DNA of 64,000 bases from Octopus vulgaris (lineage: Eukaryota): the NCBI GenBank assembly GCA_951406725.2, contig OX597840.1:18600001-18664000 (forward strand), given 5' to 3'. A model generated the notes under the pieces. It was not told where the DNA came from, made no database searches, and worked only from the letters and a program-made list of their open reading frames with translations. The position numbers and the translations under genes are program-made. How positions within the stretch are numbered: position 1 is the first letter of the stretch; the number at the start of each line of letters is the position of its first letter. Below, piece after piece: positions 15,136 to 17,764 of the stretch.

Positions 15136-15665
15136 CAGTACCTCGAGGTAGCGTGGCAGGTGAACTTTGCTGCTGTGGCCCAGGTTAGAACCTGGCCATA
15201 AGGAATAAAGCATAAGTGGTTGATTCAGCATCGTTTTACTCAGTGCAAAGACTCAAACTTATTGAGCAGAGAGAGATCAAATCACAGCTAAGCTTTTTCT
15301 GAAGGGTGTAACCACATAAGGATATATTAAGGTTAATGATTTTGACTTAACGAAACCAAAAGTTGATCATTAATTTCATTTTTCATTATGAATTATAAAA
15401 ATTCAATCAAAACAGTTCGATATTGGAGAGATGAGGAATTATGTAGATTATTACATTCGACGGATATTTGTCCTCATCTTGTTTGTTGTTAACACAACGT
15501 TTCGGCTGATATACCCTCCAGCTTTCTTCAGGTGTCTTGGGAAAAATTTCAAACCTGGGTTCCTATTCCTAATCAAACTATGCCATATGCCTGTGGGCAA
15601 ATGGCATAATGGTTAAGAGCGCAGGCTACTAACCTCAAGATTCCGAGTTTGATTCCAGGCAGTGA

Positions 15666-15698
<33 letters not shown>

Positions 15699-16570
15699 CG
15701 AACCATAATAAAACGATGGCAAGAAAAGCCCCTTCATGGTAAATACTGGACTAAACTAAACGCAAAAGAAATAGACAAAGAAAAATCCCAGCAATGGTTG
15801 AGAAGCTCAGAACTCAAAGCAGAAACAGAGGGATTTTTAATTGCAGCACAAGACCAAAGCCTCCCACAGAAATTACCAAAAACATGTAATGAAAAGAAAT
15901 ATTACAAGTAACTGCAGAATATGTGGAGATGGACAAGAAACAATAAATCATATTATCTCTAGCTGCCCAGTCCTGGCTAAGAAGGAATATATTCACAGAC
16001 ATGACAGAGTTGGAACTTACATACATTGGAAGCTATGCCAACATTATGGAATAACAACAGAAAAAAGATGGTATAGGCACACACCAGAAAAGGTCACAGA
16101 AAACGAGAAAGCAACCATACTCTGGGATATGCCGATACACACAGATAGAGAAATTAAGGCCAACAGACCAGATATAGTTGTCAGAGACCATGAAGAAAAA
16201 AAATGCTTTCTAATTGATGTATCAATACCGGCTGATGACAACGTATCTCTAAAAGAAATGGAGAAACTCTCAAAATACAAAGACCTGGAAATAGAGGTCA
16301 CTAGAATGTGGAATCTGAAAACAGAAACAATTCCTATCATAGTAGGTGCATTAGGCATGACAAAAAAATATTCAGACAAATACATAACAAAAACACCAGG
16401 ACTTACAAACACATATAACATACAGAAAATTGCACTACTAGGCACTGCACACATCCTATGCAGAACACTTTCCATACAATAACCATCAGAGCATCACAAC
16501 AAATCACAGCACATACCCAAGGCACACAGAGCTGTGCTTGGTAGTGAAGTGAAAGCACGTTATACAACTA

Positions 16571-16574
<4 letters not shown>
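15699..16574 (+). mobile_element. R4/Dong-clade non-LTR retrotransposon 3' end (CCHC plus restriction-like endonuclease)
   Basis: CRICG..ETINHIISSC..RHDRV..ILWD..RPDIVV..LIDVSIP..EKLSKY; bounded by (TAA)n on both sides. Confidence 0.88.
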
Positions 16575-16600
<26 letters not shown>

Positions 16601-16601
<1 letters not shown>

Positions 16602-16809
16602 GTCAAGACGAAGAGCGCAATTCGATTGTAAGAGATCTTATTGAACAATATTTCAACAGTAAGTCTGTCTTTGTCAAGTTCAAAATAAGAAGTGATAAAA
16701 TTTCTGAATTTTTATCACTTCTTATTTTGAACTTGACAAAGACAGACATACTGTTGAAATATCGTTCAATAAAATATCTTACAATCGAATTGCACTCTTT
16801 GTCTTGACT
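16601..16809. repeat. About 209-bp near-perfect palindrome
   Basis: AGTCAAGACGAAGAGCGCAATTCGATTG... versus ...CAATCGAATTGCACTCTTTGTCTTGACT, centred near 16705. Confidence 0.9.
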
Positions 16810-16853
16810 GTTTACCTTTGTGAAGAGTTACATCAATCCTTTTTTAAAATACA

Positions 16854-16890
<37 letters not shown>

Positions 16891-17764
16891 TAATAATAAT
16901 GATAATATCGAAAAATACCTTAGGAATGAGAACCTAGGTTCGAAATTTCCCCAGGACATCTGAAGAAGGCTGGAGAGTATATCAGTTGAAAGGTGTTAAC
17001 AACAAACAAGATGAGGACAAATATCCACTGAATGTAAATAATGTAAATAATGTTCAATCAAAACTGTTTTGATTATTGGTTAGAGTTGATCAGTTAGAAA
17101 TAGCAGCTACATCGTCATTTAACGTCCGTTGTCTATTCTGGCATGAGTCGGACAGTTTGACCCGAGCTTGCAAGCGGGGAGCTGCACCAGACCCCAGTCT
17201 GATTTGGAAGGGTTTCTATGGCTGGATGCCCTTCCTAACACCAACCACTTTACAGAGTGTGCAGGGTGCTTTTACATAATGCCACATTATGAGAAATTAT
17301 AGTCCTAGAAATCATTAAAAATGATGAGGTGGTCGAAGTGGTGATCATGGCTGGAATATTCTTTATCATAGCCCAGTTCAATTAAGGTTGACCTGCTAGA
17401 AACAGCAGCCAGACCTTTCTAAAATTATACACTATGTCTTAAATGAAGGACACATTGAATAATGTAGATATCCTTAAAAAGACGAAGTGGAATACTCTTA
17501 ATCATAGATAAGCTTGATCAAGGCTGATTTGCCAGAAATAGTAGCTAAATCTCCCTGAAATCATACACTGTCAATGTCTTAAATGAAGGACACATAGGAT
17601 AATGTAGTCCTAGATATCCCTACCAAACAGAGTGGTGGGAGTCATAGTTAGAATAAGCCTTGGTCAATGGGTAATGAAAGTTGATCTGCTAGAATTAGCA
17701 GCCAAATTTCTCTCAAAATCATACATTTTAATGTCTTTAAATGGCACTGTTATATAGTCCTATG

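Follow-up and report, generated by a model that had tools for sequence, protein, structure and literature searches.

The window analysed here, a 64,000-nt stretch of the Octopus vulgaris genome (GenBank assembly GCA_951406725.2, contig OX597840.1, positions 18,600,001 to 18,664,000), carries two insertions of the same repeat in opposite orientation, each flanked by a 12-bp target-site duplication (TSD) and composed of a tRNA-like head, an (AAT)n tract, and a direct and an inverted arm bearing a hammerhead ribozyme motif. The first-pass annotation of this DNA had proposed a nonautonomous, RNA polymerase III (Pol III)-driven unit, resembling a short interspersed element (SINE) or a retrozyme and mobilized by a Penelope reverse transcriptase (RT). 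We found that the unit is the pseudo-long terminal repeat (pLTR) of a coding, endonuclease-bearing (EN+) Penelope-like element (PLE), hence a terminal repeat and no separate SINE or retrozyme.

The coding element and its two copies in the window

The Penelope link was borne out by an open reading frame (ORF) for RT and a GIY-YIG endonuclease that is continuous with the arm, and the autonomous element sharing this arm, which the annotation had suggested looking for, was found as coding copies. Walking upstream yields a full unit of ~2.65 kb running from arm through tail, ORF, linker, GC palindrome, head, and (AAT)n to the arm again. The unit thus reads as a pLTR, an ORF of ~830 codons (RT, then GIY-YIG), a short linker, the palindrome, the head, (AAT)n, the start codon, and the hammerhead, and closes at either of two 3' ends separated by 33 nt. 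The ORF begins within the arm, 70 nt ahead of the hammerhead cut site, its frame stays open through the tail, and the pLTR carries its first ~51 codons. The head directly follows the endonuclease in 26/30 loci selected by protein and in 22/30 selected by DNA (the latter read by eye), and GIY-YIG-like coding sequence lies directly upstream of the head in 3/30 of the first loci. Conversely, the arm lies downstream of the matched head in 26/30 head-selected loci (by eye), confirming the constant linkage of head and arm. A head-bearing pLTR is also present upstream of the ORF in loci L316, L320, L321, L331, and L338, and partial tandem pLTRs with the ORF start inside occur as well.

The ORF matches RVT_1 above the cut-off, and 992 proteins align with it at an E value of 1e-20 or better, the closest relatives (P0001-P0030, from public assemblies) being mostly 55 to 72% identical. 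Its C terminus aligns with the GIY-YIG domain of P0079 (E 1e-53); Pfam GIY-YIG gave no direct match of the ORF and was reached through this alignment alone. The CX2-5CxxC linker between RT and EN that marks Neptune and Nematis (criterion of PMC8557442) was not seen in the alignment, read by eye. Membership in the EN+ PLEs is, in our view, close to certain. The annotation had named an ordinary Penelope pLTR as the finding that would speak against a separate mobile unit, and such a pLTR is largely what we observed, the exception being the tRNA-derived head within it. No other Penelope family was found in the fetched stretches of the octopus genome, and a distant-relative query also returned 0 loci. 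All long copies read contain stops or frameshifts in the ORF, and arms differ by 5 to 6% from the column majority; the family looks old and is probably inactive.

On rereading of the letters, both window copies stood as first described with respect to their opposite orientation, their TSDs, their A and B boxes (Table 1), the succession of head and (AAT)n, the end of both direct arms at TAAATAATG, the extension of both inverted arms by 33 nt, and the self-foldback of the copy 1 head (-17.2 kcal/mol, z -1.9). The hammerhead quoted for the direct arms is intact in copy 2, whereas that of copy 1 lacks 3 nt at the cut site, near 16990, and its stem II is weakened. About 1.15 kb inside the proposed extent of copy 1 (15414-17052) belongs to other sequence: the great length of this copy is due to a 5'-truncated long interspersed element (LINE; 15699-16570), a 215-bp palindrome, and 43 unique bases, all inside its (AAT)n. 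The LINE, which we take from its motifs and TAA target to be a restriction-like-endonuclease element of R4/Dong type, has a zf-RVT match below the cut-off (E 6e-5) and 97% identical copies in 3 of 90 systematically sampled stretches; a long and natural RT frame of a similar LINE was seen at L129:1289-2761. No second copy of the palindrome was found in the fetched loci, and a low-copy miniature inverted-repeat transposable element (MITE) or captured foldback DNA are candidates for the palindrome and the 43 bases between the AAT tracts.

Table 1. Positions of the two insertions and their parts, numbered from the first base of the window
Feature	Positions	Strand	Remarks
Copy 1 left TSD	15402..15413	.	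12 bp; last base may instead be the terminal base of the element
Copy 1 inverted pLTR arm, 5'-truncated	15414..15572	-	Hammerhead core 15531-15499; ends at distal (tail) site
Copy 1 snap-back junction	15579..15601	+	Inverted head start joined via the GC palindrome preceding the A box
Copy 1 tRNA-Arg-like head, 5' part of pLTR	15602..15669	+	A box 15602-15612, B box 15645-15656
Copy 1 (AAT)n of pLTR, first part	15670..15698	+	Target of secondary insertions
Secondary insertion, young 5'-truncated LINE with AAT tail	15699..16600	+	Foreign to the unit
Palindrome in copy 1	16598..16812	.	215 bp, 92% arm identity; then unique bases 16813-16855
Copy 1 (AAT/GAT)n, second part	16856..16906	+	
Copy 1 direct arm	16909..17052	+	Penelope ORF start codon 16926-16928, hammerhead core from 16960, proximal-site end
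Copy 1 right TSD	17053..17064	.	12 bp
Copy 2 left TSD	53546..53557	.	12 bp
Copy 2 direct arm, intact minimal type I hammerhead	53558..53692	-	Core 53639-53607; ends at proximal site
Copy 2 (AAT)n and tRNA-like head	53693..53778	-	A box 53768-53778, B box 53724-53735
3'-terminal 32 nt of the copy 1 LINE family, at the copy 2 arm junction	53781..53812	+	94% to four LINE copies (systematic stretches)
Copy 2 inverted arm	53822..53949	+	Core 53866-53898; 36-nt deletion from cut site; distal (tail) end
Copy 2 right TSD	53950..53961	.	12 bp

The inverted arm of copy 1 (15560-15570) and the direct arm of copy 2 (53664-53674) have in common a two-base swap that abolishes the start codon; gene conversion or a rare local variant are possible explanations for its presence in separate insertions. 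Elsewhere in the window, the broken 3' end of a LINE ORF, presumably RTE-like from its motifs, lies just upstream of copy 1 (14860-15200). The window also holds two further abundant SINE-like families (among families D4-D20), which we take to be one CORE-like and one Nin-like, and minisatellites of 67 bp (62845-63374) and 30 bp (10339-10665).

Abundance, short copies, and geometry of insertion

Over the 2.80 Gb searched (227 contigs), 2,166 sites match the 33-nt core of the hammerhead exactly, compared to 0 for its reversed control, and 1,034 match a 30-nt head motif, compared to 0 for the control. TSDs scoring at least 8 flank 41/57 two-armed insertions versus 6/400 shuffled flank pairs; together with the core counts, this establishes that the window observation is not due to chance. 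Ninety 10-kb stretches taken at fixed steps (L131-L140 and L171-L250) contained 14 insertions, corresponding to ~44,000 per genome (Poisson range 24,000 to 73,000). All 14 fell within the first 48 stretches and none within the last 42; the family is therefore clustered and the Poisson range too narrow. The 112 insertions analysed comprise these 14 and 98 others from 89 loci, the first listed core matches, on contig 1, which are biased toward one variant and well-kept copies. The queried stretch is present in sequencing runs under five organism labels, two of which have reads or contigs covering endonuclease, head, and arm; none of the runs listed is registered as RNA, a result without weight for or against transcription. 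The hammerhead core had no match in viral contigs.

The short copies do not behave as the noncoding, nonautonomous family initially proposed. Among 333 arms, with core-selected loci excluded from the short class, variant 157A occurs in 29/97 short and 24/105 ORF-linked arms and variant 226G in 21/95 and 16/110, respectively, while divergence is 5.2% in short arms and 4.5 to 5.9% in ORF-linked ones. These like variant frequencies and divergences argue for the same source of short and long copies, the unit being the coding element's own repeat. A true Penelope-dependent SINE, whose short copies would be transcribed by Pol III themselves and amplified in trans from short masters, could accommodate the finding that only 16/112 insertions (2/14 in the systematic sample) extend to the ORF or linker, as well as the A and B boxes kept in short copies; moreover, Adineta pLTRs alone could mobilize a host gene in trans (PMC3846280). 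Such a SINE nevertheless appears improbable to us, as the short copies have neither a variant or age of their own nor a common master-specific 5' flank, and they stop 154 nt into the ORF, whereas the Poseidon_Ac template needed the first 172 nt of its ORF (PMC11167929), a need that, by analogy, we infer may apply to the octopus family. A retrozyme-like nature did not hold either, no head-to-tail tandem array being present among the 112 insertions. No back-joint of a circular RNA was seen among the 15 best-supported of 138 joints, in one RNA run from a library not made for circles.

An internally deleted subfamily, with the ORF start joined to position -13 from the A box or to the cut site, was considered and rejected as rare (2 and 1 exact genome matches, respectively). 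In L319, L320, L324, and L335, the ORF breaks off at a common position ~235 nt past the tail, after a GUU-like triplet, and continues at either -13 or the hammerhead cut site, in some cases with extra A's. This breakpoint, rare in the genome, may mark a site of second cleavage or of RT landing.

Most insertions (74/112) are head-to-head pairs, the others being single arms with occasional two-unit repeats. In 57/59 classifiable pairs, one end is proximal and the other distal, 33 nt further (P 6e-15; 15 pairs have an unclassified end). The annotation had placed the extension on the inverted arms, which is accurate for both window copies but is not a general rule: the tail can sit on either arm, and among the 65 core-selected pairs, the longer arm has its end at the short site 35 times and at the tail 21 times, with 9 unclassified. 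Paired arms agree at variant 157 in 45/52 pairs. TSDs have a mode of 12 bp and range from 8 to 18 bp. The inverted arms and the TSDs on most insertions are also what a nonautonomous DNA transposon (MITE or foldback element) would display if the arms were its terminal inverted repeats. However, the fixed 33-nt tail sets the two ends apart, inner arm lengths vary freely, TSD length is not fixed, and the arm forms the beginning of an ORF for RT and endonuclease. This in-frame continuity with the Penelope ORF refutes a DNA transposon, to which we leave next to no likelihood.

In Poseidon_Ac, both strands are cut and extended, two internal RT start sites bound the tail, and a dimer is predicted (PMC11167929); a tail at one end only has already been described (PMC3846280 and PMC8557442). 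The pairing of one short with one tailed end in 57/59 octopus pairs matches the two RT start sites known for Poseidon, and suggests that one cDNA is primed per target strand, one per start site. We propose a model in which the element protein would make cuts ~12 bp from each other in the two strands of AT-rich DNA and prime a cDNA on either strand, using the proximal start site for one and the distal site for the other, as with Poseidon_Ac in vitro (PMC11167929). An RT starting in the 5' pLTR would run off at the RNA 5' end after ~270 nt, giving many short, SINE-like arms, whereas one starting in a downstream pLTR would continue into endonuclease and RT. The two cDNAs would then be joined head to head, often via snap-back at the palindrome.

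Probable hammerhead cleavage and the tRNA-like head

The hammerhead has, as read from its sequence, a conserved core, stems I and II, and a palindromic stem III; stems I and II are present in the minimum-free-energy fold, which is not unusually stable (z -0.4). By these features, it is the minimal dimer-type type I motif of PMC4209133. Deletions cluster at its cut site, where 59/322 arms carry one: 56 (in ~329 arms) start in the 10-nt bin containing it compared to 0 to 14 in 17 other bins, and 45 of 325 small deletions lie there compared to 0 to 8 at 15 sites with like microhomology. Most take out the GUU triplet or 5 nt, losses that would arise if RT left the downstream product at its 5' end and jumped to the upstream product's GU. 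They affect one arm only in 21 pairs and both arms in 6, have no link to subfamily alleles, and are commoner in ORF-linked arms (17/47) than in short ones (31/216; P 0.001), an excess that fits RNAs with two ribozymes in cis. The deletions are thus likely scars of in vivo hammerhead cleavage, whereby some of the RNAs would be cut by the minimal hammerhead in dimeric form, with RT bridging the nick by microhomology and leaving deletions of 2 to 5 nt. Speaking against so simple a picture, the deletions show some concordance between arms (P 0.03), and part of them may therefore be inherited; some longer ones could reflect RT skipping the hairpin beside the cut site; and RNA-seq of Poseidon_Ac had no ends at its cut site (PMC11167929).

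Aligned with two tRNA-Arg genes of the octopus genome, the head reaches scores of 62 and 60, compared to 27 to 28 +/- 4 for shuffles, 0/300 of which score as high. Rfam and ARAGORN called no tRNA or hammerhead in the window or in one well-kept copy. Its likeness to tRNA is one of sequence similarity, and the head no longer passes as a tRNA. No tRNA-like head was found before the hammerhead in 13 other Penelope-like loci (15 found, 2 duplicates dropped); three own controls gave tRNA alignment scores of 56 to 66 against about 38. The alignment recovered 3/3 of the controls and a strict A/B pattern 1/3. As a side observation, seven tRNA-Cys-like genes are clustered within 3 kb in L096.

The 5' ends of arms accumulate at the head. 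Their density is 4.4 per 100 nt from -15 to +5 relative to the A box and 0.22 to 0.32 in four other intervals of arm, head, and ORF, a ~15-fold difference; the density of 2.5 from -30 to -16 largely reflects alignments extending into snap-backs. Pol III transcription typically starts 12 to 14 nt before the A box in SINEs. In L320, L324, and L368, an A-ended ORF fragment is joined exactly to -13 (L320 and L324 may be one event), and oligo-A is joined there in 1 of 100 listed heads. Moreover, runs of four T (T4) are scarce on the coding strand: none of 14 conserved T3 runs reaches T4 (P 0.03), and T4 density is 0.35 per kb compared to 2.96 in other LINE RT regions of the same genome with equal T content, and to 2.84 in 50 T-matched loci out of 73 Penelope-like ones from metagenome contigs (80 minus 7 duplicates). 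Of the control Penelope-like loci longer than 1 kb, 1/26 lacks any T4. The 5'-end pile-up near the A box and the absence of a conserved T4 run in 2.6 kb suggest Pol III transcription of the coding element from its tRNA head, which we consider somewhat probable from this sequence evidence. Pol III would start ~13 nt upstream of the A box and read through the T4-free unit, often as multimers.

Several observations weigh against this proposal. The head was compared with 11 tRNA sequences of ~7 isotypes, Arg being the best of those; G4 runs are equally absent (0/12); and the scarcity of T4 stems from one family and is one observation. Among the first 100 listed heads (out of 1,805), 21 by eye extend into the native linker, with ~39 being palindrome snap-backs, the junction class of copy 1, and ~40 joined to other sequence. 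The 9,744 RNA reads (~6% of one run, from a related organism) are about equal on both strands and have no shared starts or ends, a pattern to be expected if they stem from passenger copies in an old family, and they give no support for a discrete transcript. Furthermore, Adineta pLTRs, with TATA/initiator (Inr)-like motifs, also open with palindromes and fold back there (PMC3846280), and by analogy the palindrome alone could cause the 5' stop. Characterized PLE promoters overlap a 5' untranslated region (UTR) intron, pointing to Pol II (PMC8557442), and an uncapped Pol III RNA would still have to be translated.

An alternative is an ordinary Penelope pLTR with a passive tRNA or SINE head in its 5' UTR, transcribed by Pol II or host read-through, whose ends would result from RT stalling or snap-back at the GC palindrome. 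The palindromes and inverted junctions known at Adineta pLTR 5' ends (PMC3846280), the share of snap-backs among listed heads, the many ends at -4 to -7 on the 3' side of the hairpin, the missing pile-up of RNA starts, and the absence of G4 runs all fit such a passive head. We hold it to be rather unlikely, as the hairpin stem is just 3 to 5 bp, snap-back copies keep the palindrome in full and part from native sequence at -15, the joints of A-ended fragments fall exactly at -13, and T4 runs are ~8-fold rarer than in control retroelements. We give slightly less than an even chance to the combination of all parts, in which a coding PLE has captured a tRNA-Arg head as Pol III promoter, lost terminators over 2.6 kb, produced tens of thousands of mostly SINE-sized run-off copies, and kept a record of twin RT initiation and of in vivo hammerhead cleavage bridged by RT.

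Implications and comparison with known systems

Among non-long terminal repeat (LTR) elements, autonomous ones use Pol II and SINEs use Pol III (PMC10886601). If true, a tRNA head acting as the promoter of a coding element would make this divide less sharp, raise the question of how uncapped RNA gets translated, and show how repeats with a tRNA head and a hammerhead, such as Sm-alpha, could arise directly from a Penelope element. The promoter aside, the poorly understood Penelope cycle has left a large natural record in this family: the strict coupling of short and tailed ends puts to the test a model of two sites and two strands that was derived in vitro, and the deletions at the cut site are relevant to whether Penelope hammerheads cleave in vivo. 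In terms of annotation, repeats of SINE-like appearance that number tens of thousands in the octopus genome are Penelope ends. The full text searched, with most subscription papers and repeat databases outside its scope, yielded no account of a coding Penelope element whose pLTR has a tRNA-Arg-like A/B-box head, of the octopus family itself, or of hammerhead cut-site deletions; repeat libraries probably list the family already, as a Penelope element or a SINE.

Inverted pLTRs, tails, TSDs, palindromes, and minimal hammerheads are standard traits of PLEs (PMC11167929, PMC3846280, and PMC8557442). With the EN+ Penelope/Poseidon clade (Poseidon_Ac, PMC11167929; Adineta Pen1-6, PMC3846280; PMC8557442), the octopus family shares the single ORF for RT and C-terminal GIY-YIG, its start in the pLTR near the hammerhead, partial tandems, an inverted 5' pLTR, short TSDs, the palindrome at the pLTR 5' end, and the optional one-end tail of 30 to 40 nt (33 nt in octopus). 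Both Poseidon_Ac and the octopus family have two RT start sites, the first at +111-118 and at about +121, respectively. The octopus pLTR differs in opening with an A/B-box head where the described relatives have TATA/Inr-like motifs or an intron-overlapping promoter, in a coding strand without conserved T4 runs, and in being pLTR-only in ~6 of 7 insertions. The octopus SINE OR2, a CORE-SINE (PMC4758252), has the same type of tRNA-derived head in probably the same host group, but no CORE- or Nin-like body was seen in the pLTR unit when compared by eye with the consensus. OK and OR1 are further SINEs named from octopus. Animal non-LTR retrozymes (bioRxiv 10.64898/2026.07.22.740005) carry the same type I hammerhead, related to PLE pLTRs, and are defined by tandem hammerhead units, whereas the octopus copies are head-to-head pairs or single arms. 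The TRIMp3 elements Cassandra, Helenus, and Ajax (PMC10886601) likewise have a Pol III promoter derived from a small RNA in their terminal repeat, with a proposed origin via SINE insertion; they are, however, nonautonomous LTR elements of 0.3 to 1.3 kb compared to the 2.65-kb coding octopus element, and that paper makes no mention of Penelope.

The minimal type I hammerheads of PMC4209133 show the same core, extra base before stem II, 5-bp stem I, and loopless palindromic stem III needing a dimer. Their activity was weak in vitro and came without in vivo evidence, whereas genomic octopus copies have deletions clustered on the cut site. Finally, Sm-alpha and Sj-alpha of schistosomes (PMC2770079 and PMC8490949) combine, like the octopus unit, a tRNA-derived sequence with a type I hammerhead in a short, high-copy unit; Sm-alpha is described as noncoding and derived from tRNA-Gln, whereas the octopus unit serves a coding element as its terminal repeat and has tRNA-Arg as its best match.

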